Positions 42,774 to 64,000 of a stretch of 64,000 nucleotides of DNA are shown one piece after another. How positions within the stretch are numbered: the stretch's first letter is position 1; each line of letters starts with the position of its first letter. The translations under genes and the position numbers were made by a program. The stretch covers positions 1,824,001 to 1,888,000 of the forward strand of contig OZ244239.1 of the NCBI GenBank assembly GCA_965217115.1, in the 5' to 3' direction. The notes below the pieces were generated by a model that did no database searches, was not told where the DNA came from, and saw nothing but the letters and a program-made list of their open reading frames with translations. Source of the DNA: Bdellovibrionales bacterium (GTDB taxonomy: Bacteria; Bdellovibrionota; Bdellovibrionia; Bdellovibrionales; CAYMLA01).

Positions 42774-43247
42774 ATGTCTAGACGCAGTGGTGCTTTTAAA
42801 AGAGAAATTACCCCAGACCCTGTTTACAATGATGTAACAGTGTCTAAGTTTATTAATAAAATTATGTTAAGTGGCAAGAAGAGTGTTGCTCAAAGTGTTT
42901 TTTATGACGCTCTAGAGGTCATTCGTGAAAAAACCGCCGATGAAGAACCTTTGGAGGTTTTCAAAAAGGCCGTTGATAACTGTAAACCTTCTTTAGAAGT
43001 TCGTTCCCGTCGTGTAGGTGGTTCCACCTATCAAGTTCCAGTGGATGTTCGTCCCACCCGTCGTTTGACATTGTCCATGCGTTGGTTGGTTGATTTCTCC
43101 CGCAAGCGTGGTGAGAGTGGTATGGCCCAGCGTTTGGCAGGAGAGTTGTTGGATGCGTCTAATAATCGTGGGAATGCGATTAAGAAGAAAGAGGACATTC
43201 ATCGGATGGCTGATGCGAATAAGGCATTCGCCCACTACAACTGGTAA
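42774..43247 (+). CDS. rpsG: 30S ribosomal protein S7
   Basis: '[11 protein letters not shown]' and '[13 protein letters not shown]'. Confidence 0.99.
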
Positions 43248-43352
43248 TTTTTCTGCAGATAACCTTCGCATTTCTTCGTTGTTGCGTCGGCGCTGTACGC
43301 TTGTACAGCTTTCTCCTTACGCCTTGAACTGCTCGGTTCTCTTTGAAAAAAA
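43248..43352. repeat. REP/MITE-like long imperfect hairpin directly after rpsG
   Basis: Apical GCTGTAC-gctt-GTACAGC palindrome with outer pairings AACC/GGTT and TTTTC/GAAAA. Only one copy in this window. Confidence 0.5.
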
Positions 43353-43566
43353 CATTATTGTATTGGTTAGTCATTAAATACCTCCTAGGATTATTTTTTA
43401 TGAAAAAAACCATAGCTGGGTCATGACCCAGAAGTTAAAGGGGGATTTGTGAGAGGGGATATATTCACGCTTGGGTGATTCAATTTTGGTTTATAGAATT
43501 GAGATATGAAGCTGAAGGTGTAGAACTCTGGTAGATAATTATATTATTTCTAGAGATATTTTTAAA

Positions 43567-44361
43567 TTAGGACATGCTGCTAAAGATCCATGAAAATAGA
43601 ATGGAAAATTTAACAAAAAGGATACTAATCACAAGTATAATTACCCCAGATGAATAAAGAGTTATAGAGATTAGAGATTTTCCCAAGCTTTTTAGTGCCT
43701 CTAAAATCTTGTTGTCTTTGTCGTCATTATTCTCATTTGTCTCTTCTTCATCTAATTTTAATGCAGCAACTGGAATTATATAGGAGAGATCTATATTTTC
43801 AATATTAAAATTACTGTTATTTTTATCTTTATTCATACTCTGTAAAGCCATAAGAATTATTTGAGAGATATTTTTTCTACTATCGTCATCAATGACTCTA
43901 GTATTTCCCCCCATATAATTAGAATGCTTTTTCAGTTCTTCCACGACCTCTTTACCTATGCTGGTATTTTCAAATTTTAGGAATAAAGAATTTAAAAATA
44001 AGTTTTTATTTTTTTCAAAGAGTTCTTGAGTGTGTTGATTATAAAGTTTTTGCATCTCTTCCAGATTTCTTTCGATTCCCAAGACCGAATAAGCATTCAA
44101 AAAAACGAAAAATTCACTGATGATAGCTGACAGGGTAAAGCAGAACATCCAAAGAATAGGGCCTTATCCCGAGATGCTTGAGATAGAATTATAATTGATT
44201 AGAAATAGCACCAATGATGTTGAGTAAATTAGTAAGGAATTTTTTGAAAGAGAATAAGATGATTTCGTTATTAAATGGCTAAAGTGGGTTATTATTTCTA
44301 ATGTAAAGATATCTGCATTTATATCAGCAAGGGCAGTGTTAAGGTCGCTCTTTAGGCTCAT
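43567..44361 (-). pseudogene. About 264-codon, 3-TM membrane protein gene interrupted by an in-frame TAA at 44164-44166 (possible retron-linked effector)
   Basis: ORFs 44164..44361 and 43567..44148 share a frame and are separated by one stop (...ISSISG*GPILWMF...). ATG lies 4 nt after the RT stop with a GAGG SD. Confidence 0.7.
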
Positions 44362-44365
44362 GCTT

Positions 44366-45313
44366 TCAAACCTCGTTATTGCTTATAAGTTGTATAGCCC
44401 TGTTTTTTAATTCATTAGAGATATTTTTTTTAAGATTAATATATTTTTCTTTCCCTTCAATTTCTCGTGCCACTTGTACTTTCCCCTGTATAGACTTTAA
44501 ACAAGTAGAAGAGAGTTTAGTTAAGTCCTTATTGACAGCCCTTAGGGGGCTAAAAATTTCTTTTTTTAAGCTATGCTTTGTTGAGTGTTTTCCATTGTGA
44601 ATAACATTACCTGTTACAACTTTAGGACTGTTTTCATCAAAGTATCTTGTTTTCTTCTTTTTCACCTTAATCTCATGCTTTTTGAGCACTGTTCGGATTA
44701 AAGAATCAAGTTTTCTATCAATCCGATAACTTTTGGAGAAGGTCATGTCATCGACATAGAGAGTAAACTTCATTCCTTCCTGTTTTGATAAAGATTGTAT
44801 TTCATCGAAAATAGGTTTATGCATCCAAAAAGCCAGTACAGGGCTTACTGGGCTTCCAGTTGGTAGATAGCCATCTTTAAATATCAAGTCACAAAGAAAC
44901 CAAGATGTATCGGCATTAATTTTTAGGTAATGGTGGAAGAACCTGAAGCCGTACTCAGTCTTACAAGTTGGGAAAAAATTATCAATATCCATGTTTATTA
45001 GGTGTTTGGCTTCAAGGTGAAACTGTGCATTTTTTATATAACTTTCCCCTTTACATGATTTCAGGTAATTAGGTGGTTGAATCTGAGAAAGCAAACTTGC
45101 TAGAATATCATGAAGTTTTCTTAACTTTCCTATTGGTACAGTCGTTAGGCGCACTTTGCCTTTTTTGTCCTTGATGGTCCCATTTTTGAAAAGTTTATTT
45201 CTATCTTTCCAAATAGATTCAAGCTCTTTTCTACTCATGCTAAAAATCTTAGCAAGAAGTCCTTTTCCTTTTAAACAGTATAGTCTATGCTTTTCTTTCT
45301 GTACTAGAGTCAT
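44366..45313 (-). CDS. Retron reverse transcriptase (type VI-like)
   Basis: Retron region X NAQFH, 'DIDNFFP', 'LPTGSPVSP', catalytic YVDD and region Y VTG. 315 aa with no maturase or nuclease domain. Confidence 0.92.
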   Translation of the reverse strand: MTLVQKEKHRLYCLKGKGLLAKIFSMSRKELESIWKDRNKLFKNGTIKDKKGKVRLTTVPIGKLRKLHDILASLLSQIQPPNYLKSCKGESYIKNAQFHLEAKHLINMDIDNFFPTCKTEYGFRFFHHYLKINADTSWFLCDLIFKDGYLPTGSPVSPVLAFWMHKPIFDEIQSLSKQEGMKFTLYVDDMTFSKSYRIDRKLDSLIRTVLKKHEIKVKKKKTRYFDENSPKVVTGNVIHNGKHSTKHSLKKEIFSPLRAVNKDLTKLSSTCLKSIQGKVQVAREIEGKEKYINLKKNISNELKNRAIQLISNNEV

Positions 45314-45599
45314 TAGAGACCTTTTCTACGAATTGGAGAAATTTAAGTATAGATTTACGGAAGAACTCAGGAGTTTTAAATTTTGGATCAGCACTATCAA
45401 GTTGTTCATTAAAAAACATGATAGATGACACCTCGAGGTTAAATATGTTTGCATATTTTTCAATAAGCTTAAGATTTGGCCTTCTTTTATTCGTTTCCAC
45501 TTCAGACAGAAAACCTGGTGAGATTTTTAGTTCTCTGGCCAAGTGGGTTAATTTCTTATCATGATAAACACGAATCAGTCGTAAAGCTTCTCCAATCAT
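45285..45599 (-). CDS. XRE/Cro-type HTH protein of the retron
   Basis: 'GEALRLIR...LARELKISPGFLSEVETNKRRP' HTH. AGGAGAGG SD. Overlaps the RT start by 29 nt. Confidence 0.9.
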   Translation of the reverse strand: MIGEALRLIRVYHDKKLTHLARELKISPGFLSEVETNKRRPNLKLIEKYANIFNLEVSSIMFFNEQLDSADPKFKTPEFFRKSILKFLQFVEKVSNDSSTERKA

Positions 45600-45627
45600 T
45601 TTCCTCTCCTAAAAAAATTAGACTTGG

Positions 45628-45774
45628 TTAGTCACCTCGACTCCCCCAGAAAAGGTCTATAACGAAAAAAACAACTCTAAGGATTAACTTTCGATACTTC
45701 CTTAAAAATTGTCGTCCTTTCTGGTAGGCACTCGGGGTAACACAAAACTGCGGTATTCTTCTTCTTATCTTCAT
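45628..45774 (-). CDS. Unannotated 48-aa small protein, candidate retron toxin: MKIRRRIPQFCVTPSAYQKGRQFLRKYRKLILRVVFFVIDLFWGSRGD
   Basis: Hand-translated: ATG at 45774, TAA at 45628-45630, SD GAGAGG just upstream, ends 28 nt before the HTH start. Below the ORF-track length cut-off. Confidence 0.75.
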   Translation of the reverse strand: MKIRRRIPQFCVTPSAYQKGRQFLRKYRKLILRVVFFVIDLFWGSRGD

Positions 45775-45783
45775 AAAAAGACC

Positions 45784-45832
45784 TCTCTTTGTTATGAAGA
45801 GCTTTATTGCTCTCCTCCCTTGAACAAAGAGA
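45784..45832 (-). promoter_or_regulatory. Hairpin sequestering the small-protein ribosome-binding site
   Basis: Perfect 10-bp arms TCTCTTTGTT/AACAAAGAGA plus an inner GAGAGC/GCTCTT stem. The 3' arm overlaps the SD. Confidence 0.65.
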
Positions 45833-45867
45833 TCGTTCGCAAATTTGCATCACCAAGTCTACTTTAA

Positions 45868-46030
45868 GCACGAGAATTCCCTTTCTCGTGCGGCCTTGGG
45901 GAGTATAATGTCTAAGTAGCTTAGTTAATAAATTACTTAGTCACAATAGGTTTGGCCCCAAGAAGCCTAGTGTTTCCACTAGTCACAGGTACACTTTTTG
46001 TGTACCCCCTTTAATAAGGGAATCCCTATT
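45868..46030 (-). ncRNA. Retron ncRNA (msr-msd) candidate
   Basis: Two short msr-like hairpins (45988-46006; 45967-45982 with a GAAA loop), a long msd-like stem (45895-45962) and a1/a2-like pairing of 46016-46026 with 45873-45883. TATAAT lies at 46040-46045 on the minus strand. Confidence 0.75.
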
Positions 46031-46371
46031 GAATACATCATTATAATTGCAGGTTTTTATCTAAGCTTCAAGAATAAAATTCACCTATAGAAGAATAATG
46101 CGTTAAGTTATGGGAGAATGGTAATATTGCCTTCTTAATATTCTAAAAGAAGAAATATAATTGGAGTTTTTTTTGGGCGAGGCTTGTTCGGGATAACCCA
46201 AATGATAGTCTCATTTAGAAAATAGATTTTTTTCTTTATAGATTTAATCAAACTTCAAGGAGTCGTTTTAAGTTGGCATTTAGGGCTTAGGCTAATCTTT
46301 CAGCAACAGCCCTGGTGATTTTTCTTGCGCTACTTTCGTATTTAGAGCCTCTCTACCTGTTCTTACTTTTT

Positions 46372-49080
46372 TTAAAATTTGGTAACAAATGACTTAAAAT
46401 GATCAATATTCCGAGAGTCTGTGATTTCATCATGAGGAATTAGAAGGTATGCCCAAGGCTTCTTACCATGCTTTTTAGCAAAATCACTTGCTGCACTACA
46501 ATATTCTTGAGCTGCCCTTGCTTTTTCTATTACGTCAGGGCTTTTAAGTTCATTCTTTGCTTTAATTTCCACGAGATAATGATGGGCTTCCGTTTCAACA
46601 ACAAAATCAGGTTCATACAGCCTTGAGTGGTGATCCCAATAAATATTAAATTGCTTAATTGAGGGTCTAAGCCATTTTAAAACTTTCTCATCTTCATCAA
46701 GAAGTGAAGCAAATGCTTTCTCTGGTAAAGAATCAAATTTATAAATAGTATGGCATGATTTCTTATAAAAATCGAAAACCCTTTTTGTTAGTTCCGCTTT
46801 TGTCGCAACATGATCTCTAGAGTCATAAATTTTATCCTCTTTGAACTTGCTATAGTTATGGTTTTCAATTCTTGTAAATGGCTTAATCTGCGCGTCCTCA
46901 AACTTACCAGTCTTACAATAAAATTTTTCCATCATCTGAGCATAGATAAATTCAGCTATCTTAACTCTATAATACTGAATGACATTATCTATTTCAGAGT
47001 CTTTTGAAAGATAAGATTTAAAATGTGCCAAGGCTTCGTCACTAAGTTGGTAAAGTAAATCTCCATGCTCATCATAATCAATTTCATCATAATTCAATAA
47101 CTCTGACACGATTGTCTTAAGCCAACTTTGCTCACCAGAGGAGCTATCGTTTGTCATAGAGTGGGTAAGTGTCTTTTTTTGATCTTGTAGATAACGCACA
47201 AAAATCTCTTCTTCAATAGGCGGAAACTTTGCCATTGTACTGGTATCGAGGTTGAATTTTTTAAAGCCAAATTCAGTGTCATTTTTTAGTTGAATAGTGA
47301 TTCTTGGTATCTCTATTGTATTTTCAATAATTGATTCAATTATTTTTTTATATTTCTCCTCAAAGACTTCATCTACCTGAACATCTTCGAGGTTAATAGA
47401 TAAAACTCCCTGAGATATTTTCTTTTTTATAGCTTTTTTTAATTTATCTTTAACTTCTGCTTTTGATAAATCTTCAATATTGGTTACATTATCGCTATTG
47501 AAGCAGCTTTCAAATAATTCCTTCTCCACTAAAAGCTTATCTGTTTCAACTTTCTTTTCTAATTCATCGTCGATAGTCTCAATTTCAACGGCTCTTTGAA
47601 TAAATTTCTCCTCTACTGGAGTAACAGCTGGAACAACCTCTTGATTCTTCTTGAAAATGTCATCATCAGAATCAATAAAGTATTGTTTCATTACTATAGA
47701 GTTAGGGTCATTAGCTTTTTTAATCAAGTCTTCAAAACTTTCATGGGCCATAACAGTTAAGGTATCAACCTCTGGAACTCCTGTAATTTCACCATATGGA
47801 AGCCGCAATCCCCTCCCCAGTGTTTGCTCTGTGAGAATATTGGCCGCGAATGAACGAAGAGGAACAATTGTGTAAAGGTTAGTCACGTCCCAGCCTTCTT
47901 TTAGCATATTACAATGAATTACTATTTCAAATTCATTCTTAGGGTCTTCTAGCTCTAAAAGCTTTTGAATATTTTCTTCTTTTTCAGTTCCCCTTTGATT
48001 AGAGTGAATCTCAAAGACCTTAGCCGCATATTGTCCATTACAAAAAGATTCAGATTGAATCAGTGAACGAAGTTCCTCAGCATGCTTAGTATCTTGAGCC
48101 ACAACTAAAACAAAAGGGCGAACTAATGGTTTTTTATGATTTCGAGCGTATATTTCAAGATTTGTTTTTGTTATCTCATGCACATGCATAGCATCTGATA
48201 ACTTCATTTTATCAAGCCCCTCGGGTGACAAATCTTTAAGCTGTTTTTTTGTGAGATTTTTCCTCGTTGCCGCTGCGGGCTCTTTAACAAAGCCATCTTT
48301 AATTGCATGGGCCAGTGTGTACTCATATACAATGTTTTTAAAGGGGACACCTTTGGTTGATGTAGGAGTTGCTGTTAGTTCTAAGCCCAAGATCGGTTTC
48401 AACTCATTTAGAACTTCCATGGCCCTAGATGCTCTATAGTGATGAGACTCATCCATTAACAAAACAAGGTCTTCAGTATTTTGTAAAAATTGAAAATAAG
48501 ACTCTCCAAAGTATTCAGAAATTCTTCTAATCTTTGGAGATTTCCCTCCTCTTGCTTCAGAATTTATTTTTGAGATATTAAAAATATTTATGATGACCTC
48601 ATCTGAAAAAAGGGGGGTTTGACCAAAGCGATCTAGAGAAGTTTTTTTTACCGTATTAGTTCTTAAATAATTATCACCAGTGATAACTTTTGGTTCAATC
48701 TGTATCCCCTTAAAAACATATTTAGGATGGGTGTTTCTACTAAAATCAATAATCAATTTATTATAAATGGTTAAGTTAGGAGCCAAAACTAAAAAATTTC
48801 TCAAGCCTTTTTCTTTATAAAGATAGCTGATAAAAGCTCCCATAAGCCTAGTCTTTCCTACTCCTGTTGCTAGAGCAAAAGCTACTGAAGGAAAGCCACG
48901 TTCAAAATTAATTAGCTTGTCAAACTCTCCACACCTTTTAAATGTTAATAAAGCGTCATCTAATTTTATATTTTTATTTAATTCAATACTTGAAATGAGT
49001 TTTGATAATATTTCAAGACTCTCCCTTTGTGGCTTTCTCAAGCTTAATCTTTGGTTTACATAATTGATATTTGAACTCAT
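46372..49080 (-). CDS. res: Type III restriction endonuclease subunit (Res)
   Basis: Walker A ATGVGKT, DESHH, 'LTATP', 'EGWDV', 'QTLGRGLR' and C-terminal PD-(D/E)xK 'EPDFVV...VEIK'. Confidence 0.9.
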   Translation of the reverse strand: MSSNINYVNQRLSLRKPQRESLEILSKLISSIELNKNIKLDDALLTFKRCGEFDKLINFERGFPSVAFALATGVGKTRLMGAFISYLYKEKGLRNFLVLAPNLTIYNKLIIDFSRNTHPKYVFKGIQIEPKVITGDNYLRTNTVKKTSLDRFGQTPLFSDEVIINIFNISKINSEARGGKSPKIRRISEYFGESYFQFLQNTEDLVLLMDESHHYRASRAMEVLNELKPILGLELTATPTSTKGVPFKNIVYEYTLAHAIKDGFVKEPAAATRKNLTKKQLKDLSPEGLDKMKLSDAMHVHEITKTNLEIYARNHKKPLVRPFVLVVAQDTKHAEELRSLIQSESFCNGQYAAKVFEIHSNQRGTEKEENIQKLLELEDPKNEFEIVIHCNMLKEGWDVTNLYTIVPLRSFAANILTEQTLGRGLRLPYGEITGVPEVDTLTVMAHESFEDLIKKANDPNSIVMKQYFIDSDDDIFKKNQEVVPAVTPVEEKFIQRAVEIETIDDELEKKVETDKLLVEKELFESCFNSDNVTNIEDLSKAEVKDKLKKAIKKKISQGVLSINLEDVQVDEVFEEKYKKIIESIIENTIEIPRITIQLKNDTEFGFKKFNLDTSTMAKFPPIEEEIFVRYLQDQKKTLTHSMTNDSSSGEQSWLKTIVSELLNYDEIDYDEHGDLLYQLSDEALAHFKSYLSKDSEIDNVIQYYRVKIAEFIYAQMMEKFYCKTGKFEDAQIKPFTRIENHNYSKFKEDKIYDSRDHVATKAELTKRVFDFYKKSCHTIYKFDSLPEKAFASLLDEDEKVLKWLRPSIKQFNIYWDHHSRLYEPDFVVETEAHHYLVEIKAKNELKSPDVIEKARAAQEYCSAASDFAKKHGKKPWAYLLIPHDEITDSRNIDHFKSFVTKF

Positions 49081-49107
49081 AATTTACCCTTAAACTTCCG
49101 TCCCCAT

Positions 49108-50766
49108 TTATAAGTCTTCTTGAATTGGCTCTATGATATTGAGGCTATAATCATCTTTTCCAAACTCACAACGACCAAGTAACATTTGTGGAATTTTCTT
49201 AAGAGTTATATTTGGATATTTGTCTTTTTTAACTCTAAAAGCCTTTGCACATATTAAAAGAAATTCATTTTCTGACATTTGGCTATAAATTCTATCTAAA
49301 TGTTCAGAGGTTAAAAATTGAGTAGTAACAAAGATAAAATCTTTTTCAGATGAAAATCCTTGTTTCCAGTAAACAGTTTCATTTGGATAAAACTTAAATT
49401 TTTCATGCTTACATACTGCCTCTGACAACTGTATTGCATTATATTCTTTATTAATAACCCAATTTCCTCGATCATCTTTTTGCAATAAGCTTGGAGCAAG
49501 ATCATAAAATGTAAAACCACTCCCCCCATTCCAGTTCATAATTTTGGTAATTCCACTCGCATCCTTTCCTTTTACAACATTAGACAATCTTTTATGACAA
49601 TGTGAAAATGAATGATCTCTTAATTCTATACCAATCCACTTTCGATTCATCTTGTGAGCAACACTAGCAGTAGTTCCTGATCCTAAAAATGAATCAAGAA
49701 CCCAATCCCCTTCTTCCGTGCTCATATCCAGGCAACGCTTAATTAATAATTCAGGTTTTTTTCCATTAGGAAAGCTAACATCACCTTCTTTGTGTAAATT
49801 GTTTGATAATAAATCATCCCAAATTGTTGATAAAGCTTGTCCTGTTACGTACCTATTATTTATGAACTTAATTTTGCTGCTATAGAAAAGAAGTTGCTCG
49901 CCATTTAAAAAATAGTGATCAGGCTTTCCATCTCGTTCACATCTATAAACCTTATCAGCATTTTTTCTTGATAAGTCTAAAAATTCCCGAGCATCTGAAC
50001 TTACATCCTTATCTTTAATTCTAGCGGTACGAACAACGCGCTGAGGCTCCTTCAACACAAAGTCATTAAACTTATTCTCAAGTTCATCTTCATATTTTTT
50101 CTTAAGCTCTTTCTGTTTGCAGTGTAAATTTTTTGCCAATGCGGATCTTAAAGTGACTAGATTCCAATTTTCAAAGGACTCATCATAATTTTCAATATAC
50201 TTGGAGTAGCGACTGTCCCTATCAGTTTCAGTAAATGTTTTGAATGACTTCCATTTACTTTTATCTTTTGCGTAGACAAGGATATAATTCGCTGTAGATA
50301 CTAGTCCCGGGTTTACTGCTTTTGGCCCAGAAACCGAACTTTGTTTAAAAGTTACCATCGAAACTCTATTTGAACGGCCAAATATTTCATCAGTTAGTAC
50401 ACATAAATATGCAAATTCATTATCATCTATGTGAATAAAGAGAGTCCCTGATTCATGCATTAGGGAATGAATAATCTCCAGACGGGACTTCATCATTGAG
50501 AGCCAAATTGAGTGCTCAACTCCATCATCGTAATGCTCAAAAGCTTGTTGTGTATTAAAAGGAGGGTCTATATACACACATTGAATTTTTTCTTTAAAAC
50601 CGCTCTCTAAAGCTTTCAATGCGAGTAGGTTATCTCCATGAATTAACATATTTTCACTTTTTGTGCCCTCTGATTTCTCATCAATTGGCATAAGTATTCT
50701 TGGCTCCAGAATGGAAGTATCATCTTTCCCAACCCAATCTAACTCTAATCTTTGCTTATAGCTCAT
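49108..50766 (-). CDS. mod: Type III DNA adenine methyltransferase (Mod)
   Basis: 'IHGDNLLAL', catalytic DPPF, 'KKPE' and SAM motif 'DSFLGSGTT' in beta-class order. Confidence 0.9.
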   Translation of the reverse strand: MSYKQRLELDWVGKDDTSILEPRILMPIDEKSEGTKSENMLIHGDNLLALKALESGFKEKIQCVYIDPPFNTQQAFEHYDDGVEHSIWLSMMKSRLEIIHSLMHESGTLFIHIDDNEFAYLCVLTDEIFGRSNRVSMVTFKQSSVSGPKAVNPGLVSTANYILVYAKDKSKWKSFKTFTETDRDSRYSKYIENYDESFENWNLVTLRSALAKNLHCKQKELKKKYEDELENKFNDFVLKEPQRVVRTARIKDKDVSSDAREFLDLSRKNADKVYRCERDGKPDHYFLNGEQLLFYSSKIKFINNRYVTGQALSTIWDDLLSNNLHKEGDVSFPNGKKPELLIKRCLDMSTEEGDWVLDSFLGSGTTASVAHKMNRKWIGIELRDHSFSHCHKRLSNVVKGKDASGITKIMNWNGGSGFTFYDLAPSLLQKDDRGNWVINKEYNAIQLSEAVCKHEKFKFYPNETVYWKQGFSSEKDFIFVTTQFLTSEHLDRIYSQMSENEFLLICAKAFRVKKDKYPNITLKKIPQMLLGRCEFGKDDYSLNIIEPIQEDL

Positions 50767-50775
50767 AATATCCCC

Positions 50776-53763
50776 TTAAATGATTTTCCACTTTATTTTT
50801 ATTATATTCTTTTCTTTATGTTCTAATTTCATTCGTTTTTCAATATCTTCAATTAAATGTTCTTTTTCTTTTTCAATACGATCTTGTTCTTCAAAAAGCT
50901 TTCTTCTCATGTTATTTCTCTTCTTCTCAAGATTTTTTGCTACTCTCTGCGCCTTAACTTTTTTATCTAAAAGGCTGATATTTTTTGAATCTTTCTTTAT
51001 TTTCTTAATCTCCTTATCAAGTTCTTTAATCTCGATCTCAAGACCCTCTTTAATGTCTTCGCTCCATTTATCTAATTTTTCAGACTCCTCGATAAAGAAT
51101 GAATGATTGCGTTTTTCAATTTCCTTTAAATACAAAGACGTTGTCTGATCTTTAATTTTAAAAAGACTTTGTTCTACCTGTTTAGAAGTTTCGTCATTAC
51201 AAGATGAGACAGAAGCATTAATGTTGAACATTTTTCGAATTACTTCTGCTGGCACGTCATCTCCATCTTTAGTTATACCAACGTATACCATCTCTTCACT
51301 ATGATCTAATGAATTAACATTAAGCAAGCAGATTTCTAGCCAGCCAGATTGACCAATATATTCCTCTAAAGCTGTTATTTTATTTTCATAAGAAGATAAA
51401 TCAAACGTCAGGCTAGCTAATTCGAGCTGGGAAGATTTTGCGTTCTCGATAACTCTCTGGCCAAGCGGATGGTTTAACCTATAGCTATGTGAATCACCCT
51501 CTCTTTCTTGGCCTTTAGAGATCATTTTATATGCCCCAAGCTTGTATTGACCGGGAGAAATCTCTGAAAATGGGGATTTTTTTAACTCAAAAGAATAATT
51601 TGAATCGTCGAAATCAGCATATTCATTTAGCGTGTTCTTTGTCAGGTTCCAAAACATATTAGAGACATTATCCACCCTTTTTTCTGCTTCATCTAACTGC
51701 ATTTTTAATTTTGAATGAACATCTTCATCAAATTTCTTTAAAACAATATTCTTTGTTTTGCTTAATTTTTCTGAAATTTGTTTAGAAGAAGATATTTGTA
51801 GGTTCTCAAAGGCCTCACTAATTTCCTCTTCAGTTCGACAGGACATATATATCTTTAAAATTCTCTTTTCAATATCGTGACCGTCTATAATATCACCAAG
51901 TACTTCGTCACTTGCACCAAATGCTCCACGAAATAAATTGAACTTTTCCTGCAAGAGTTCTAAAATTCTCAAGTCAGCAATGTTTTTGGTATTTACAAAA
52001 TTAACCACTATTACGTCTAATTTTTGACCATACCTATGACAACGACCTATTCGTTGTTCAATCCGTTGTGGGTTCCATGGCAAATCATAGTTAATTAAAA
52101 GGTTACAAAATTGTAAATTAAGCCCTTCCGAGCCAGCTTCAGTTGTGAGAAAAATTTTTTTGACCTCTTTAAACTGCTTAACGAGAAACCTTCTTTCTTC
52201 TGCTCCTCCTGAATCACCATTAAATATTACGACTTCATTCTCTACATCTATTCCCATCTCTGACAGCCTTCTCATAATGTAGCCCTGGGTTGATCTAAAT
52301 TCAGTAAAGATAACGGCTTTTTCTGGCCAACCTTCATGTCGTGCCTTTTCAAATTGTTGGGTTAAAGCATTTACCAAGGCATCGGCTTTTTTATTTTGCT
52401 TGATTTCCAAACTCAGAACAATCATTTTCAAAATAATTTCTGATTCTTCCTGAATCTCTTCAGAACTGAACAGCGTTGTTGCTTCTTCAGGATTCTGAGA
52501 GTTTTCTATATCTTGATCTGAATAATTCTCTTTAACCTCACCTTCTTCTTCAGAAACCTCCTCAACAGGAGTGTTACTTTTAAAAGATTTTTTCAAGCCT
52601 TCATAATTTTTTGAAATAAGGTCAGCAAAGAGTTTTTTCTCAAATTTCTCTAGTGCTTCTGATTTTCTCCCATCATCAAGAGTTAAGCTTTGAGTAATAC
52701 TGTCTAATAAACTATTAAATAGGGTCTCATTGTCAATAGAAACGGTTGCCAAAAGAAGCCTTTTATATAAATTTAAAAGGCTGTTTTTTATCGCAAAGGT
52801 TGAGCTTGCAATAAGTTTTAAGTAAACAAGTGTTAACAATGGAAGGGCCGAGGCAGGAATAGAGATAAGAGTTTCTCTTCTTAGGAAGATTTCAAAGCTG
52901 ATCCTCAGTTCTTCTTCATAGTCTGTAGGGTCATAGGTAAAAGTAACGGTCTTTCTGTTGGTATAATTAATATATTCAAGAACATTTTTTCTAAGTTCTC
53001 TTCTAAAGAAATTTTTCATTCGACTTTGTAGCTCTATCATTTGACCCTCACGAACAGAGTCAGACAAATTACAAAAAAGACTTTGAAAGCTTTCTCTTGT
53101 TCCTAAAATGTATTCATCAACAAAGCTTGTGAGTCCATAAAGCTCCATTAGGTGATTTTGCATAGGAGTCGCGGTTAAAAGTAATTTTTTAAATGGCTGA
53201 AGAGTGTCTTTGATACGTTTAGCACGCTTTGCTTCCTTTTTTCCTTTTTTCCATACATTTCTCAATTTATGAGCTTCATCTATAACAATTAAATCCCATG
53301 CTTCCTTTTTAATAATTTCATGATAGCTATCTACAGAATGTTCATTTGTAATAATTATTTTTTCTTCTCTATTTAGTGGGGTTTCTTTTTCTGGATTATT
53401 TATTTTCTTAAAATCTTGCCCTGCCATGATTTCACTGTCTAAAAAGAAGAGATTTGATAATTCATCTTTCCATTGATGGCGAAGTGACTTAGGAGCGATG
53501 ATTAAAAATGATCTCTTCCCCTCAGCCCATAGCTGTGAAAGAACAAGACCTGCCTCAATTGTTTTTCCAAGGCCAACTTCGTCAGCTAAAATACATCCTT
53601 TACTCAAAGGGTTCTTCAAAGCAAATATTGCTGCATTTATTTGATGAGGATTTAGGTCAATACAGGCATCAAACATTGCCTGAGAAAGACGATTAACTGA
53701 ATCTCCAGCTTGAAGCAGTGATAATTCATGTGCGAATAATTTAGCGTGGTAGTTAGTGTTCAA
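50776..53763 (-). CDS. SNF2-family helicase/ATPase associated with the type III R-M operon
   Basis: LADEVGLGKT, DEAH, LLTATPMQN, EGLNLQ, WNPQRIEQRIGR and a coiled-coil C-terminus. TTG start. Confidence 0.9.
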   Translation of the reverse strand: MNTNYHAKLFAHELSLLQAGDSVNRLSQAMFDACIDLNPHQINAAIFALKNPLSKGCILADEVGLGKTIEAGLVLSQLWAEGKRSFLIIAPKSLRHQWKDELSNLFFLDSEIMAGQDFKKINNPEKETPLNREEKIIITNEHSVDSYHEIIKKEAWDLIVIDEAHKLRNVWKKGKKEAKRAKRIKDTLQPFKKLLLTATPMQNHLMELYGLTSFVDEYILGTRESFQSLFCNLSDSVREGQMIELQSRMKNFFRRELRKNVLEYINYTNRKTVTFTYDPTDYEEELRISFEIFLRRETLISIPASALPLLTLVYLKLIASSTFAIKNSLLNLYKRLLLATVSIDNETLFNSLLDSITQSLTLDDGRKSEALEKFEKKLFADLISKNYEGLKKSFKSNTPVEEVSEEEGEVKENYSDQDIENSQNPEEATTLFSSEEIQEESEIILKMIVLSLEIKQNKKADALVNALTQQFEKARHEGWPEKAVIFTEFRSTQGYIMRRLSEMGIDVENEVVIFNGDSGGAEERRFLVKQFKEVKKIFLTTEAGSEGLNLQFCNLLINYDLPWNPQRIEQRIGRCHRYGQKLDVIVVNFVNTKNIADLRILELLQEKFNLFRGAFGASDEVLGDIIDGHDIEKRILKIYMSCRTEEEISEAFENLQISSSKQISEKLSKTKNIVLKKFDEDVHSKLKMQLDEAEKRVDNVSNMFWNLTKNTLNEYADFDDSNYSFELKKSPFSEISPGQYKLGAYKMISKGQEREGDSHSYRLNHPLGQRVIENAKSSQLELASLTFDLSSYENKITALEEYIGQSGWLEICLLNVNSLDHSEEMVYVGITKDGDDVPAEVIRKMFNINASVSSCNDETSKQVEQSLFKIKDQTTSLYLKEIEKRNHSFFIEESEKLDKWSEDIKEGLEIEIKELDKEIKKIKKDSKNISLLDKKVKAQRVAKNLEKKRNNMRRKLFEEQDRIEKEKEHLIEDIEKRMKLEHKEKNIIKIKWKII

Positions 53764-54148
53764 CCTTTACTACCTCGCTCATCGAACTTTCTCCCCTTAA
53801 TTAATTAAATAAAACTTATGCGAATATTCAAACACTGATTGTCTTTTTTGACAAACTATTGCTAAGATAAAAAAATCATTCTCTTGACTAGACGAATTTT
53901 TTAGTGCCAAGACATAAGTTCCCCTCAGATTGCAAGTAACTGAAGTCTTGGCTGCAAAATTTTTGGTATTGGATGTCTTACTCCGAGGCTTGAGTGAGGT
54001 CTAGCGGTGTTATAGTGAACTCCTCAACGTTCAATTAATTTTGTTATCTGAGCGTCTGTGCTTTGGTGTTTCTCTCTCTAAGAAAAAACCTGTTAAGACC
54101 AAAAAATCAAAAAAAACCAAAGAAAAACATAGAGGATTTGGGGTGGGG

Positions 54149-55750
54149 TTATTTTTTGGTGAGGTGGTGGGTGAGGGCTTTTCGGTTGATGCGCCAGTTG
54201 TGGCGGGGGTCTAGGGGGAGGTGGGGGAGTTCTTGTATTTGTAGGTTGGGGAGGTTGAAGGGGAGGTTGTTGGGGTTGAGATTGAGATTGAGATTTTTGG
54301 AGTTGGGGGAATTGGTAGAGGGGTTTTCGATGGTGAGGAGGGGGGTGTTTGTTTGGGGGTGCATGATGAGGGCGACGCGGGTGGGGGGGGATTGGTTTTC
54401 GACTTGGTGTTCAAAGGGGAAGGTTGGGTGGAGGGTGCCGTCGATGTTGATTTGATCTTTGATTCTGCCGACGAGCCAGAGGCGGTCTCTTTGGTCAAAG
54501 AAACCTAAGTCGCCTGTGCGATGCCAGGTTTTGCCTTGGAGATCTTTGGGTTTGGTCTGTCGTGTGGCTTCTGGGTTGGCGATGTAATTTTTTATGACGT
54601 GGGGGCCGCTTAAGAGAATCTCTCCCGTCTGTCCCTGGGGGAGGGGGGTTTCTAGTAATTTGTCTTCGGGGGAGAATAGTTTTATTTTAATTCCCTCAAT
54701 GGGTTTTCCGACGAGGTATCCATGGTCTTTTTCTCCAAGAAATTCTTTTATATTTATTCCCGATATGGGTTCGGCCTCTGTTGAGCCGTAGACAATGTAG
54801 TTTTCTGATTGTTGAAATAGATTTTGAATCCTACAGGCTAACCACTGGGGGACGGCTGCTCCACCAGTGACTGAGCTTTGGAAACTTTTCGGAATACAAT
54901 CAGGAGTGATCTGATTGTTAGTGAGATTATTAAAAACAGCAGGGGAGGCTGACATGCGTGTGACTTGCCAACGGTTGAGCTGTTGAACAAGTTTTTGCGG
55001 ACAGGCCTGGGAGGGATAACGCAAATCCATATCGGGGAGAACCGTGGTGATTCCCCAATTGAGATTCATAAGGACGACGAGGGGAAAACCACAGAGGTCC
55101 ACTTCACTGTCATTTTTAGGCCAGCTTCTATGACTGAAAAATCTTTGGTGGGCAATGATCTGATGTTGCCGATCGGCTCCCTTGGGACGACCTGTTGTGC
55201 CTGTTGTGAAGGAGATAAGGGAGGTGTCCCCAGGGGAGATCGAAACCGTGGGTCTCAATAGATCGGCGGTCTCTCTGTCATTGGAGTTATGAATTAAATC
55301 CTGCCAATTTTTTAGAAACAACCCACTGCCGTCGGTGGAGAAAAGTTTTTTATTCCACAGGGCGGGGAGGTAGAAACGATGGCGCAATAATGTCTCTGTG
55401 CTGATAAGCGCCTTTGCTTTTGATAACCTGATGGAGTGTATTAATTGGGTTGGGGAGAGGGTGGTATCGATGAACACGGGAACAATCCCATTGGAAAAGA
55501 GAGCTGCTAAAAAAGCGTAGAAACTCACCGAGACAGGCATAATGACAAGAAAACGATCCCCGGGCTGCAAGTGGTGGTGATCCAACCCCCGACGGAAACC
55601 CTGGACAAGGCTCGCAAACTCGCCATAGGTCCAGACACGCTCTTCTCCCCCTGTCTTTGGTTCGATAAGAGCGACTTTATCGGGGTGTGCCTTTGCATTT
55701 GCAAAAAAATCATCGGCGAGGTTTAGGGGGATTGAAAATTCATGGGACAT
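54149..55750 (-). CDS. AMP-dependent acyl-activating enzyme (ANL family, OleC-like)
   Basis: P-loop 'FTTGTTGRPKG', 'YGSTEAEP', 'HRTGD' and 'GR'. Confidence 0.88.
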   Translation of the reverse strand: MSHEFSIPLNLADDFFANAKAHPDKVALIEPKTGGEERVWTYGEFASLVQGFRRGLDHHHLQPGDRFLVIMPVSVSFYAFLAALFSNGIVPVFIDTTLSPTQLIHSIRLSKAKALISTETLLRHRFYLPALWNKKLFSTDGSGLFLKNWQDLIHNSNDRETADLLRPTVSISPGDTSLISFTTGTTGRPKGADRQHQIIAHQRFFSHRSWPKNDSEVDLCGFPLVVLMNLNWGITTVLPDMDLRYPSQACPQKLVQQLNRWQVTRMSASPAVFNNLTNNQITPDCIPKSFQSSVTGGAAVPQWLACRIQNLFQQSENYIVYGSTEAEPISGINIKEFLGEKDHGYLVGKPIEGIKIKLFSPEDKLLETPLPQGQTGEILLSGPHVIKNYIANPEATRQTKPKDLQGKTWHRTGDLGFFDQRDRLWLVGRIKDQINIDGTLHPTFPFEHQVENQSPPTRVALIMHPQTNTPLLTIENPSTNSPNSKNLNLNLNPNNLPFNLPNLQIQELPHLPLDPRHNWRINRKALTHHLTKK

Positions 55751-55900
55751 GTTTTCATCCTACGAAAGGCAGTCATTTTTTGCTAGAAAATAAGCGGTTT
55801 TTGATAGATTATGAGTGATTTAAGATGAAGTCCTCGCCGGACTTATGAACTCCTTGGGAATTCATAGCAGATTGAACGGAAAATAAAAAAGGATGTTTTA

Positions 55901-56800
55901 ATGGGATCTATGATGGGTGGTTTTTTAGAGTGGTTTAAAGAACGTTTTCCACTGGCAGCTGTGTTCTCTGCTTTTCTGATTTACACATTGGTGGCCTCGC
56001 TGTCCAAGTCTATAGATCAAGTGCTGACTTTGCGGGATGTCATCTCTGCAGTAGCCGTGACCTGTCTTTTTCTCTTACTGAGAATATTAGATGAGCACAA
56101 GGACGATGCCTATGATCAGAGAGTTCATCCTGAACGGGTTTTACAGAGAGGGCTCATAAAACTCTCTGATCTAAGGAAGATGGGATATTTTTCGCTCTTG
56201 TTTATGTTAGCTGTCTCTTGGAACACAGGTCTACCGTCTCTATTGTCTTTGCTTATAATGTTGGTATGGGTGTGGTTGATGTATAAAGAATTTTTTGTTG
56301 AAGATTGGTTAAAAGAACATCTTTTGATTTACGGAATAAGTCATTCTCTGGTTTTATTTTTTTTGAGTTTATGGATTGTGACGTTGTCTGTGCCAGTAGT
56401 GATTTTGAATAATCAATTATTTGCGCTGATGGTCTTTATTTTCCTCTTTGCAATGGGCTATGAACTGACCCGCAAAGCGAAGGGGAGGGATGAAGTGAAG
56501 GCGGGGGAGCAGAGTTATACAGAAGTCATGTCCCCTTCAACAGTGGCGGTGATGATTTTCAGTGTCGCCCTCACGGCTCTGATGTTACATATTTATTTAA
56601 TGCTCGGTCTACAAGGGGAGTACCCTCTCTACGCTTGGGTGATGTCAGGAGCTAACGGAGTGTTTTTATTATTCTCTCTTTTCAAGTACATTCAAAAGAC
56701 GGATTGCAAATCCCGAAAGCTCAATGAGATAGCCATGGCCTCGTTGACTTTTTGGAGTTACGCGACTTTGATTTTTGCAACACATGGTTTGACGCTATAG
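55901..56800 (+). CDS. UbiA-like prenyltransferase family membrane protein
   Basis: About 8 TMs, Asp-rich 'RILDEHKDDAYD...PERVLQRG' and a second 'YELTRK...SYT' motif. Confidence 0.75.
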   Translation: MGSMMGGFLEWFKERFPLAAVFSAFLIYTLVASLSKSIDQVLTLRDVISAVAVTCLFLLLRILDEHKDDAYDQRVHPERVLQRGLIKLSDLRKMGYFSLLFMLAVSWNTGLPSLLSLLIMLVWVWLMYKEFFVEDWLKEHLLIYGISHSLVLFFLSLWIVTLSVPVVILNNQLFALMVFIFLFAMGYELTRKAKGRDEVKAGEQSYTEVMSPSTVAVMIFSVALTALMLHIYLMLGLQGEYPLYAWVMSGANGVFLLFSLFKYIQKTDCKSRKLNEIAMASLTFWSYATLIFATHGLTL

Positions 56801-57862
56801 ATGACTTTGATTGAAAGATCACTCTCTCTACTTAAAGTCTTTATCCCTGAGATCCCTGTCTCAGAGGATTTTGTGTCGTTTCGTCATCGGCTTGCTGAGA
56901 GAGAATCTGGCCTCAATAGGGAAGATCAAGACATAACGAGGTTTGTCTTTTCACGGGAAAACCTTATGCGCTGGAGAGTAGAGGTTTTTTGGAGTTGTGA
57001 GAGAGATAAAATACGTCTGGCTGGGTTTGTTCATAAAGGTCTGAAGATAGATGGTTTGCGGGTGGCGTTCTTTGGTTTTTGGGACACCGTGGATGACACT
57101 GAAGTCAACCGTCTCAAATTCGCTGAGTTTGAGAGCTGGGCAAAGTCCTGTAAAGCTCAGGTGATCTATGGTCCGATTAATTTTTCGACAGCCTTTGAGT
57201 ATCGTTTGCAGACGGACTCTTTTGAGAAACCTGTTTTCTGGGGTGAGCCTAAGAACCCCAAGTACTACAATCAGATTTTATCAGATCTCGGTTATGGGCC
57301 GGGGGAGAGTTATGTCTCTTATTTTTGTAAGGACATTGGCGAACTGAGGGAGGAGATCAAAAAAAACGTAGCCCCTTTTATGGGTTCTTTAAGGGAAAAG
57401 TATGGAATTGTGCCCATTGAAAAATCCTCTTGGGAAGAGAGGAAGAATGAGATTTTCAAATTGACTGAAAATATTTTCATGGAAAACTTTGCTTACACCC
57501 GTTTTAGTAAAACAGTGTTCAAGTCTTTTTATGGGCAGAGATTTTTAAATCTAATTTGTCCTAGAACGTCTCTCTTCCTACAAGATAAAAGCACGGGAGA
57601 GTTAGTCGGAATGGCGGTTAATTTTAATGACGGAAACCTCTCATCAGGACGGACGTTGTTATTGAAAACGATCGGAGTTGAAAAAAAACATCGACACATG
57701 GGAGCGACATTCCTACTTATTCTTGATGAGGTTTTAAAACGGGCAACGGATTATGAATCTGCGATGTTTTGTCTGATGAAGGAGGGGAATTTCCCAAGTT
57801 TAATCTCAGAAGAGATGGTGATTCAAAAGAGACAGTACGCTCTTTTTAAAAAAGTTCTCTAG
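56801..57862 (+). CDS. Tandem GNAT-fold (YghO-like) putative acyltransferase
   Basis: 'AFFGFWD...IYGPINFST...Y', 'NPKYY...GY' and 'IGVEKKHR' patterns. Confidence 0.6.
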   Translation: MTLIERSLSLLKVFIPEIPVSEDFVSFRHRLAERESGLNREDQDITRFVFSRENLMRWRVEVFWSCERDKIRLAGFVHKGLKIDGLRVAFFGFWDTVDDTEVNRLKFAEFESWAKSCKAQVIYGPINFSTAFEYRLQTDSFEKPVFWGEPKNPKYYNQILSDLGYGPGESYVSYFCKDIGELREEIKKNVAPFMGSLREKYGIVPIEKSSWEERKNEIFKLTENIFMENFAYTRFSKTVFKSFYGQRFLNLICPRTSLFLQDKSTGELVGMAVNFNDGNLSSGRTLLLKTIGVEKKHRHMGATFLLILDEVLKRATDYESAMFCLMKEGNFPSLISEEMVIQKRQYALFKKVL

Positions 57863-57910
57863 ATGCTGGAAAAATTGAGAGTCGGTTCTTCTAGAGAGCC
57901 CAATCTCTTG

Positions 57911-60148: not shown

Positions 60149-60232
60149 ATGAGAATATGTGGGCTTGTAAAAGAGTGCAATTGAAATATTCTTTTGGAGT
60201 TTGTTTCTATTAATAATTAAGGAGAATCTAGC

Positions 60233-61834
60233 ATGAAAAGAATGGGAATCTTTATCTGGCTCTGTGTGATGTTGTCTTCATCAATGGGGTTTTCAAAGAA
60301 AATGATTATCTACAAAACGCGACCTCTGACTTTGAAAAATGACACCCTCTCATCAGAGGATTTTAAGGAAAAACTAGAGGGGATTCAAAAATTAAAGCGA
60401 CGAAAGATCGCTGCAACGGACACCTTTGACGAGAGTACAGCCTTGTCTGTCTCCTTTAGAAATATCCGGAACCATTTAATTGGTGGGGAGGTTATTTTTG
60501 ATAATGGAAAGAGAGAAACTGTGCCAGGAGCTAAATCGGCTGCCGATATCAATGGACTCCTTTTGAGTTTAGAGAATAATCTTCAAAAGGGTAAATATGA
60601 TCAGCACCCAGATGCAAGACTCTTAGCAGCACAGCTTCTTATGCTAAGGCCTCTAAGGGGATTTATTGCAAGGTCCAAGGGTATTTTTAGTACAAAAGAT
60701 GGTAATGCTCGTACAGCACGTGGCTTAGCGATCACTCTATTAAGATTAACAGCGGCGGGGATTGATACTTATTTACCGACAGAGCAGTGGTCTGCTGCTT
60801 TTGATTATGTGACTCAACCCTTTTACAGAAAAAAGCGATCTGAAAGGTTATGTCAAAAAAAATGGCATGACCAATGTGACATGACAGATGGCCCAGCTTT
60901 ACAGGCATTTTTGATAAATGAAATCTTCCCTAGATTAGAAAATATTAAAGGCGTTCTTGCTGAATTAACGAGTGAGAAATATGAGAAGAGAGTGATCTAT
61001 TGGGACAATAAACTTCTCTTTGGAAGTGCCAATTTTGTATCCCACAAAGATCGTTATTTACGCTTAGGTCAGGCAGAGCGTCTATTGATGTTGTCCGCAA
61101 CCCAAGCAACTCAAAGCTCGATCTTGGGTATGAATGCCTATCATATAAATGGGTTCTTTGAAACTTTTGATACCATAGGTAAGAAATACGGGATAGGAAG
61201 TGTCTTTCAATCTCAATCGGCAACGGCCCAGGGAAGATTTGAAGCATTTAAAAAACCAGCGGATCTCTTCCGCTTTAAGACAGAAAAACTCACTTTATCT
61301 AAATCTTATATGAAAGCGAGTTATGACAGACTTAAAGCATCCATGCAGAATGCCTATTTGGCTTGGCAGATATTGGATGCTGGAGAAAGTAGCCGAAGGT
61401 TACAGAATAATCTTATTGATCCCCGTTTGGTTGTGCCTTTTCGAAGGGTTATGAACAATGCTTGGCCAAATGCATTGGCTTCAGTGGGAATGAATTTAGA
61501 TTTTGAAGAAGTGGAAAAAGGGGAAGTGGTTAGTTCTGTCGTTAATGGAGAGAAGGTCGTGGTGAGTTTAAAGAAATTTTTTGATGACCCCCCAAAATCA
61601 TTAAAAGTTTTTATGCCAACAGGGTTTATACAGGGAGATGAATTTTTGCATAATAACTTTGGTAAGTATCGAAATTATAGAAGAGGCAATCCTAAGCAAT
61701 GGAATGTAGATACCTATGGAAAATACTTTGAGGGAGTGAGAAGCTCTCAGGATGTTAAGCGAATAGCTCGGGTTCTCTCTCAATCTTGGGGTGGTTTCCT
61801 ATTGGGCTTACCGTTAGGCGTTGTTATGATGTAA
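60233..61834 (+). CDS. Hypothetical secreted protein
   Basis: 533-aa ORF with AGGAG SD and signal peptide. No family recognised. Confidence 0.7.
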   Translation: MKRMGIFIWLCVMLSSSMGFSKKMIIYKTRPLTLKNDTLSSEDFKEKLEGIQKLKRRKIAATDTFDESTALSVSFRNIRNHLIGGEVIFDNGKRETVPGAKSAADINGLLLSLENNLQKGKYDQHPDARLLAAQLLMLRPLRGFIARSKGIFSTKDGNARTARGLAITLLRLTAAGIDTYLPTEQWSAAFDYVTQPFYRKKRSERLCQKKWHDQCDMTDGPALQAFLINEIFPRLENIKGVLAELTSEKYEKRVIYWDNKLLFGSANFVSHKDRYLRLGQAERLLMLSATQATQSSILGMNAYHINGFFETFDTIGKKYGIGSVFQSQSATAQGRFEAFKKPADLFRFKTEKLTLSKSYMKASYDRLKASMQNAYLAWQILDAGESSRRLQNNLIDPRLVVPFRRVMNNAWPNALASVGMNLDFEEVEKGEVVSSVVNGEKVVVSLKKFFDDPPKSLKVFMPTGFIQGDEFLHNNFGKYRNYRRGNPKQWNVDTYGKYFEGVRSSQDVKRIARVLSQSWGGFLLGLPLGVVMM

Positions 61835-61837
61835 TAT

Positions 61838-62950: not shown

Positions 62951-62995
62951 AAAATCGGCCTAGGTTTTAAGTGAAGAAGTTCTAATAGTCAGATT

Positions 62996-63715: not shown

Positions 63716-63820
63716 AAATAACACTCCAAAATGGGGTCTGGCTCTATCTCCCCAGGAGATCGATGGCTCATCACTTTATGGCCGTTGGTAAAACCAGCCT
63801 TTTAGAATATATCCTCTGTG

Positions 63821-64000
63821 TCATTGAGGAGACAACTTAAATATTAAATGATCCCTCTTCGGGGGGGCGAGGTGTCTCTGAGGCTCTGGGTGAATAAGTG
63901 TTTGGAGAGGTTTTTTCGAAGAGGGTTTACCTAGACCTTTGTCTGTAATATAAGAATTGAACTCACCTTTTTGAGAGTGATCAGGGTAGACTTTTGTGTG
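63821..64000 (-). CDS. Possible 3' end of a gene cut by the window edge
   Basis: One minus-strand frame is open from 64000 to TGA at 63821-63823. No family recognised. Confidence 0.3.
   Translation of the reverse strand, partial: HTKVYPDHSQKGEFNSYITDKGLGKPSSKKPLQTLIHPEPQRHLAPPKRDHLIFKLSPQ

Follow-up and report, generated by a model that had tools for sequence, protein, structure and literature searches.

The window analysed here is a 64,000-nucleotide (nt) stretch of contig OZ244239.1 (positions 1,824,001 to 1,888,000 of the forward strand) from the Bdellovibrionales bacterium assembly GCA_965217115.1, and its minus strand carries a reverse transcriptase (RT) gene preceded by a helix-turn-helix (HTH) gene, a small open reading frame (ORF) and a structured RNA leader. 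Judged from these sequences, the locus is almost certainly a Type VI retron, complete and encoded on the minus strand, which is how an earlier note, made from the DNA letters alone, had read it. In the order in which they would be transcribed, the three genes are as follows.

45628..45774, minus strand: small protein (SP) ORF, 48 amino acids (aa), ranked first by the profile of its relatives
45285..45599, minus strand: Cro/C1-type HTH gene, 104 aa (PADLOC HTH_VI 6.9e-28; Pfam HTH_3 1.4e-06)
44366..45313, minus strand: RT ORF, 315 aa, with YVDD (PADLOC RT_VI 1e-71; Pfam RVT_1 2.6e-12)

The assignment to Type VI is carried by both larger proteins. RT_VI is the best PADLOC model for the RT (1e-71, 239.5 bits, profile positions 3–276 of 279), with RT_III-A (142 bits) and RT_V (81 bits) as runners-up, and the 24 PADLOC matches listed below RT_VI are all to other retron RT types. 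The HTH protein is matched by HTH_VI end to end (residues 1–91 on profile positions 1–91 of 92), and the PADLOC check that the earlier note had proposed thus finds both components of the type. As described in the part of Mestre et al. (2020, PMC7736814) that deals with this type, Type VI retrons combine clade-3 RTs with a Cro/C1 HTH protein of 91–110 aa and sometimes a small protein of 75–79 aa, no non-coding RNA (ncRNA) being reported there as found; the 104-aa HTH protein fits this definition (91–110 aa, Cro/C1, cluster 2_1, upstream of or overlapping the RT). In NCBIfam the best match for the RT is the retron St85 family (6.9e-38), at a level below the curated cut-off of that family. The stop codon of the HTH gene lies 29 nt inside the RT ORF in the ORF list, so that the two genes overlap by 29 nt; the overlap is real, and the translational coupling claimed by the earlier note we infer from it.

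The RT retains the catalytic and family-invariant residues. Retron RTs are marked by NAxxH in region X and by a VTG triplet in region Y (PMC7736814), and here region X reads NAQFH and region Y VVTG. In an alignment (A1) of the window RT with 29 of its 81 matches, N95 and H99 of region X, D109 and F113 of MDIDNFF, P151, T152, G153 and S154 of LPTGSP, the active-site YVDD (residues 186–189) and T234 and G235 of region Y (30/30) are invariant, so the three motifs on which the earlier note had relied (NAxxH, VTG and YVDD) are all present and shared across the family. The same note was right that TG stands in place of the usual QG, but this is not peculiar to the window copy, being common to 30/30 aligned relatives. 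All 30 members of A1 are also matched by RT_VI.

Relatives of this RT are distant. Among 5.8 billion proteins 81 matches were found, the best non-identical one at 37% identity. Scanning species-representative genomes with A1 gave 80 loci, none above 38% identity and none of them from the window's own genome. When 77 RTs are placed in a quick maximum-likelihood tree, the window RT falls inside a 23-row diderm group (SH-aLRT 94) that includes three metagenome-assembled genomes (MAGs) of Bdellovibrionota (L006, L020 and L031). Separately, an RT sequence identical to that of the window (P0001) is also recorded on a 3667-bp contig from another source.

The gene order is conserved in these relatives. 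The RT ORF is matched in 79/80 related loci (phmmer within loci), an HTH homologue lies ≤100 nt upstream of the RT start in 73 of the 79, mostly overlapping it by 1–62 nt, and in many loci a small ORF ends just before the HTH gene. Nine loci (L002, L005, L008, L011, L020, L022, L031, L038 and L042), picked by eye for a shared SP motif, encode small proteins that have in common a hydrophobic helix, a basic stretch and a motif like W(K/R)HRK. The nine SPs, with the window sequence excluded, were made into a profile that was searched against all 572 window ORFs of at least 25 aa and ranked the 48-aa ORF first (E 1.3e-4, 16.8 bits; runner-up E 0.47), which argues that this ORF is a real and conserved component, homologous to the small ORFs at the same place in relatives, as the claim of a small protein in the earlier note would have it. 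An alternative 64-aa GTG ORF in another frame (45677..45871) was not supported by the SP profile.

The SP has 12 lysine or arginine residues among its 48, a basic N-terminal part and a hydrophobic segment at residues 29–45, and is a predicted toxin by analogy with the small proteins of Retron-Vpa2 and Retron-Sen3. It has no match in NCBIfam or PHROGs, and a protein-atlas look-up gave two matches at 0.75–0.76, below the level of a lead. Structure prediction for an HTH–SP complex (alignments A3 and A2) scored 0.29, with the mark at 0.32, a value that speaks neither for nor against such a complex. Four Type VI SP clusters have been named (cl2075, cl2760, cl3272 and cl3897), the first three with proteins of 75–79 aa (PMC7736814; 10.64898/2026.04.27.721009); the 48-aa length argues against membership in these three and fits the heterogeneous 'Large' lineage.

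Upstream of the HTH gene, the locus is dense in predicted RNA structure. The elements of the leader, given from the promoter region onwards and including those that surround the SP gene, are listed below; the folds are minimum free energy (MFE) predictions.

46070..46098, minus strand: TTATTCTT twice, 21 bp from start to start, upstream of and touching the −35-like hexamer
46045..46040, minus strand: TATAAT, candidate −10 box of the retron transcript, read from the sequence
45866..46034, minus strand: structured 5' leader, msr-msd-like (MFE folds)
46030..46013, minus strand: hairpin A, short (MFE fold)
46007..45987, minus strand: hairpin B, short (MFE fold)
45981..45968, minus strand: hairpin C, short (MFE fold)
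45967..45892, minus strand: hairpin D, long and imperfect, 76 nt, candidate template for reverse transcription (MFE fold)
45891..45868, minus strand: hairpin E, perfect over 9 bp, equalled by 0/200 shuffles (MFE fold)
45852..45865, minus strand: IR1, 5' arm of the predicted clamp, 14 nt, 93% complementary to IR2, with GA directly after it
45775..45851, minus strand: riboregulator-like segment with a 10-bp stem at the ribosome-binding site (RBS) and a start-codon hairpin
45615..45628, minus strand: IR2, 3' arm of the predicted clamp, starting on the final base of the SP stop codon

Between 46045 and 45600, the 446 nt have a predicted fold of −148.5 kcal/mol, compared with −107.2 ± 6.1 kcal/mol for 100 dinucleotide shuffles (z −6.79, 0/100 as stable). 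This agrees with the TATAAT box followed by about 430 nt of stem-loops that the earlier note had described, although the folded 446 nt include the SP ORF and the non-coding leader upstream of SP amounts to ∼270 nt. By analogy with Retron-Vpa2, hairpin D may correspond to the msd. The repeat finder shows that IR1 and IR2 bracket the SP RBS together with the entire SP ORF, and within this domain the RBS, AGAGAGG, is part of a perfect 10-bp stem (45832..45823 with 45793..45784), while the start codon falls inside a further predicted hairpin (45781..45760). The pairing probability of the SP RBS is 0.78 in the window, compared with 0.45 for the HTH RBS and with a mean of 0.65 overall. The features of a hybrid RNA (hyRNA), namely a leader joined to SP, flanking inverted repeats and a paired RBS and start codon, are thus all found in the predicted RNA. 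At the promoter, the pair of TTATTCTT copies has one match in the window and 0/100 shuffles contain any; speculatively, it might be an operator to which the HTH protein binds.

Comparison of the window with eight of the picked loci (L038, where SP overlaps the HTH gene, being excluded) indicates that this architecture is retained across large distances. The clamp helix is anchored at the SP stop codon, the 3' arm starting 0–1 nt from the third stop base in 7/9 loci, and is equalled by 1 of 100 shuffles in the window, by 1, 0, 1 and 2 in four other loci and by 7 in each of two more. GA follows IR1 at +1 in seven of the nine and at +2 in the other two, and a strong hairpin ends 0–10 nt upstream of IR1 in all nine, its energy being equalled by 0–1 of 200 shuffles in six loci and by 8, 13 and 19 in the other three. 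The sequences of the clamp arms are unrelated between the nine loci. Statements on covariation come from custom scripts, and no covariance model was built because MAFFT alignments of the hairpin–IR1 segment (A4 and A5) lost the register of the stems. Exact direct repeats of at least 7 nt between leader and riboregulator occur in 7/8 relatives, with the second copy 20–50 nt before the SP start in six; chance alone is estimated to give ∼1.3 such 7-mers per locus, and just two 9-mers (L022 and L005) stand out. The duplex between a hypothetical multicopy single-stranded DNA (msDNA), taken as the complement of the whole leader, and the riboregulator gave z-scores of −0.43 to +0.97 over the nine loci.

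In a Bacillota branch of the family (L004, L012, L026, L028, L033, L057, L058, L060, L065, L073 and L079), an inverted repeat of 12–16 nt joins a site 62–91 nt before SP to one 20–30 nt past its stop codon. A core resembling TTAGAT is common to these repeats, and from locus to locus both of their sides change. Since the Bacillota branch carries a similar inverted repeat around SP, the clamp seems to be general in Type VI, and the sequences suggest that the design of an RNA clamp around a toxin gene reaches beyond the lineages studied so far.

Several observations weigh against the reading of the locus as a Type VI retron with such an RNA. The type call derives from the scores of hidden Markov models (HMMs), the RT tree being one without reference sequences of Type IV, V or VI, and in that tree the window RT has a long branch of 1.65 changes per column and no close relative, its exact position within the 23-row diderm group is not settled and the tool warns of long-branch effects. 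The candidate −10 box stands alone and was not called by a consensus promoter scan, because the only −35-like hexamer, TTGAAG (46071..46066), lies 20 nt from TATAAT. A scan of positions 43000–47000 against Rfam, with E up to 10, returned no matching family and two chance-level snoRNA matches (E 7–8). The subgroup used for RNA comparison was itself selected by eye for the shared SP motif, and within it the clamp is not significant in L011 and L031, where 55 and 64 of 100 shuffles equal it; in 8/9 loci pairing is stronger at the SP RBS than at the HTH RBS, marginally so in L042 and L022, and sequestration is only mildly favoured. In a laxer test on 52 distinct loci, de-duplicated by the SP C-terminus out of 67 with a candidate small ORF, a repeat of at least 8 nt was found in 32/52 and reached p ≤ 0.05 in just 15/52, the window repeat having p = 0.095. 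A structure descriptor derived from the relatives matched the retron, with a repeat of 10 nt, and one unrelated place in the window at the minimum length, and it matched 0–2 places per shuffled window. Finally, no exact direct repeat of at least 7 nt between leader and riboregulator is present in the window, which counts against the reading because the Retron-Vpa2 model relies on such a repeat.

Two mechanisms have been described for Type VI retrons, both in preprints. In Retron-Vpa2, a hybrid RNA of ∼470 nt holds an msr-msd part together with the coding sequence of SP, both the RBS of SP and its start codon are located in stem-loops, and the 3' end folds back by inverted-repeat pairing; the toxin is SP, the RT, the HTH protein and the RNA form a complex, the HTH protein represses reverse transcription, and translation of SP needs accumulated msDNA (Zhang et al., 10.1101/2025.10.22.683967). 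In Retron-Sen3, single-stranded DNA (ssDNA) is constitutive and HTH and SP are a toxin–antitoxin pair; IR1 and IR2 flank SP, a conserved stem-loop adjoins the inverted-repeat arm, and no significant covariation is reported for IR1–IR2 within cl2075 (Garcia-Rodriguez et al., 10.64898/2026.04.27.721009). The same preprint gives the Vpa2 SP as 55 aa and places it in the heterogeneous 'Large' clade.

Taken as a whole, a Type VI retron with a mechanism drawn by homology from these systems is very probably the best explanation of the locus. Its transcript would start near 46035 and carry ∼170 nt of msr-msd-like hairpins, including the 76-nt hairpin, then the IR1/IR2 clamp enclosing the riboregulator-like segment and the SP gene, and then the HTH gene and the overlapping RT gene. 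By homology, the RT, the HTH protein and the hybrid RNA may assemble with one another. The toxic SP would be held off in the resting cell, its RBS and start codon being paired and the clamp closing the domain, and phage recombination or RecBCD-inhibiting proteins would act as the trigger by letting RT-made ssDNA accumulate; SP would then be made or released, and the infected cell would stop growing (abortive infection).

As to how SP is held off, translational control of the kind proposed for Retron-Vpa2 is favoured, with about an even chance of being the correct account; the 48-aa SP and the local RBS stem resemble Vpa2 more than Sen3. The principal competitor, which is possible and clearly the less probable of the two, is that SP is made constitutively and neutralized after translation by the HTH protein as antitoxin, with constitutive ssDNA and release of the toxin upon loss of host RecBCD activity, as published for Retron-Sen3 (10.64898/2026.04.27.721009). 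That mechanism belongs to another Type VI retron, the SP and HTH genes are adjacent here and conserved together in relatives, and the mild support for RBS sequestration is in its favour. However, the 48-aa SP is similar to the 55-aa Vpa2 protein and lacks the N-terminal extension of ∼25 residues of the 79-aa Sen3-type proteins, its RBS lies in a perfect 10-bp stem, and the Sen3 lineage, as that preprint describes it, is mainly found in Beta- and Gammaproteobacteria.

Besides these two accounts of toxin control, the operon may differ in its extent, and this depends on the surrounding DNA. The retron lies in a stretch of low GC content (∼43300–54000, 10.7 kb, 0.32–0.37 GC compared with ∼0.40–0.47 in the rest of the window) that contains just defence genes and two orphan ORFs. 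The remaining features of this stretch are listed below.

50776..53763, minus strand: SNF2 helicase, 995 aa, matching the DISARM protein DrmD (1.1e-160)
49108..50766, minus strand: Type III Mod (1.2e-157)
46372..49080, minus strand: Type III Res (5.7e-172)
44164..44361, minus strand: 65-aa ORF, starting 4 nt after the RT stop codon, a doubtful gene
43567..44148, minus strand: orphan ORF of 193 aa whose N- and C-terminal segments are hydrophobic, lying upstream of the terminator-like site
43431..43416, minus strand: palindrome resembling a terminator, with a T run behind it; past the RT, no earlier site of this kind lies outside a coding frame

The neighbouring restriction-modification (R-M) module to which the earlier note pointed is therefore a Type III system with both Res and Mod, and the ORFs of the low-GC stretch showed neither DrmA nor DrmB. 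The adjoining position of the R-M system, together with that of the DrmD-like helicase, supports by context an anti-phage role for the retron. No tRNA, integrase or flanking direct repeats were found at the low-GC stretch. Its left flank is rpsG (S7 confirmed), preceded by genes that we read, from size and sequence, as rpoB, rpoC and rpsL, and its right flank is a gene for an AMP-binding enzyme on the opposite strand; the nearest named relatives of the S7 protein are those of Bdellovibrio, Bdellovibrionaceae or Bdellovibrionales MAGs (71–76% identity), and the predatory lifestyle named in the earlier note may be presumed from this kinship. In many bacteria fusA follows rpsG. No fusA-like ORF follows rpsG in the window, and the low-GC stretch starts right there. 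The plus-strand GC skew is strongly positive throughout positions 1–43000 and 54000–64000 (0.11–0.39 per kb) and drops to around zero or below only within the low-GC stretch, where the genes are on the other strand.

A longer operon in this lineage, whose transcript would join to the RT the 193-aa orphan membrane protein, and the 65-aa ORF perhaps as well, as an additional effector or immunity component, is rather improbable, though it has observations in its favour. Both ORFs are on the RT strand, the 65-aa ORF begins 4 nt past the RT stop codon, and the terminator-like site outside a coding frame comes only after the 193-aa ORF. The latter is probably a real gene, with a chance of ∼1e-7 of such a frame being open, a gene-like codon-position composition (GC1 > GC2) and hydrophobic ends. 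Against this, no homologue of either ORF was found in the 80 related retron loci, and promoter-like sites also occur within the AT-rich stretch. For the 193-aa ORF, a full HMMER search of 1.84 billion representatives gave a single weak relative (P0203, 248 aa, E 3.7e-4), which aligns end to end at 23% identity and has the C-terminal hydrophobic segment in common; a word-indexed search returned the ORF itself alone, nothing meaningful was found in Pfam, PADLOC, NCBIfam (one chance-level match, E 0.023) or PHROGs, and the protein atlas gave no usable match. The 65-aa ORF is without a match in Pfam, PADLOC, NCBIfam and PHROGs and is atypical in having GC1 below GC2, unlike real genes here, with a chance of 0.004 per start of such a frame being open.

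Short repeats also recur in the RNA. GTGACTA (GUGACUA in RNA) occurs seven times in the window on both strands, where 3.4 copies are expected, and three of the seven are on the retron strand within 360 nt (45986..45980, 45944..45938 and 45635..45629), the second of these in the long hairpin and the third at the SP stop codon next to IR2. The 8-mer GTGACTAA is found in both hairpin D and the SP stop region (8/500 shuffles), and in L020 a different 8-mer, GATGGCTA, occupies the matching two places (∼1945–1952 and 2270–2279; 9/500 shuffles); such a pair was not seen in the other seven of the nine loci. Speculatively, a DNA copy of the hairpin would be the complement of the repeat near the stop codon. 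In a more radical view of the RNA, if IR1 and IR2 were a true priming stem of the a1/a2 type and the G after IR1 the branching G, reverse transcription would start at the SP stop and copy the toxin coding sequence, since IR2 begins at or right after the stop codon, and the retron DNA would be the antisense of the toxin message and not a copy of a non-coding hairpin. In a milder variant, hairpin-D DNA bearing the complement of the 8-mer at the SP stop would pry the clamp open. We consider this idea, in either form, a long shot.

Also very unlikely, and slightly more so than the priming-stem idea, is a decaying or silent relic without present function, as might be imagined from the long RT branch without a close relative and from the low-GC, foreign-looking DNA. 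The three ORFs are all intact, the RT has lost none of its catalytic or family-invariant residues, the HTH protein retains all six invariant columns of alignment A3, and the RNA clamp and hairpins are intact, all of which argue for a preserved system. An RT of a non-retron class (DRT/UG, Abi or group II intron) with a coincidental HTH neighbour, the outcome named in the earlier note as one that would overturn its reading, can be dismissed as next to impossible, since the weak secondary matches (Pfam Abi_2 0.026, NCBIfam group II RT 1e-06 and Drt2 8.7e-05) fall short of the retron models (1e-71) by tens of orders of magnitude, the retron-specific NAxxH and VTG motifs are present and so are the Type VI-specific HTH protein and SP.

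The Type VI retron favoured here adds a very divergent member (RT ≤37% identical to any non-identical match) from a Bdellovibrionota-like genome. A literature search, judged by the titles listed, found no report of a Type VI retron in Bdellovibrionota, and the SPIRE survey (PMC13712802) is without mention of one. The ncRNA–SP–HTH–RT layout itself is already published for Retron-Vpa2 and Retron-Sen3, to which this locus is a very divergent addition in a distant host lineage; the expectation in the earlier note that the system was likely uncharacterized accordingly holds for the host lineage but not for the architecture, for which the two preprints (10.1101/2025.10.22.683967 and 10.64898/2026.04.27.721009) each describe a mechanism. 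What the comparison contributes is that the hairpin, the IR1–GA arm and the stop-abutting IR2 persist in eight distant loci despite complete sequence change. These three features extend what the Sen3 preprint (10.64898/2026.04.27.721009) saw in one narrow lineage, and the natural covariation across loci provides a basis for the design of clamp mutants. The locus opens no new question, and is at most a compact and distant test case between the two published mechanisms.

Among known systems, Types IV and V are placed as sisters to Type VI by Mestre et al. (2020, PMC7736814). Their RTs are related to that of the window, but RT_V scores 81 bits compared with 239.5 bits for RT_VI, Type IV is not among the matches listed, and the accessory genes of both types are absent from the locus. 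Canonical retrons of the Ec86/Eco1 type (PMC7736814) have in common with it an RT with NAxxH and VTG, a structured RNA upstream and an inverted repeat whose 5' arm is immediately followed by a G, reminiscent of the a1/a2 stem and branching G. In contrast to them, the window has its toxin gene inside the retron RNA and no separate large effector, and in the characterized Type VI systems, as described, the msDNA is not a constitutive antitoxin.

Within Type VI, the comparison was made with published descriptions of Vpa2 and Sen3. The window is similar to Retron-Sen3 and cl2075 in the order SP–HTH–RT, in the overlap of the HTH and RT genes, in a paired SP RBS and in a conserved stem-loop just upstream of the inverted-repeat arm. 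It differs from Retron-Sen3 in its SP (48 aa, compared with 79 aa and an N-terminal extension there), and from Retron-Sen3 and cl2075 in that a separate perfect hairpin precedes IR1 and the pairing of the RBS is local; unlike in the cl2075 study, the clamp arms compared here come from distant loci and differ completely. From Retron-Vpa2 of Vibrio parahaemolyticus it is set apart by its host phylum, by the two orphan ORFs after the RT and by an 8-mer shared between the long hairpin and the SP stop in place of an exact 7-nt repeat between leader and riboregulator. Its likeness to Retron-Vpa2, as far as that system is described in the preprint, extends to the order of leader, SP, HTH and RT, to the size of the hybrid RNA (predicted as ∼420–430 nt here and ∼470 nt there), to the long leader hairpin, the RBS of SP and its start codon in stem-loops and the 3' inverted-repeat pairing, and to a short SP (48 and 55 aa) with a hydrophobic C-terminal part.

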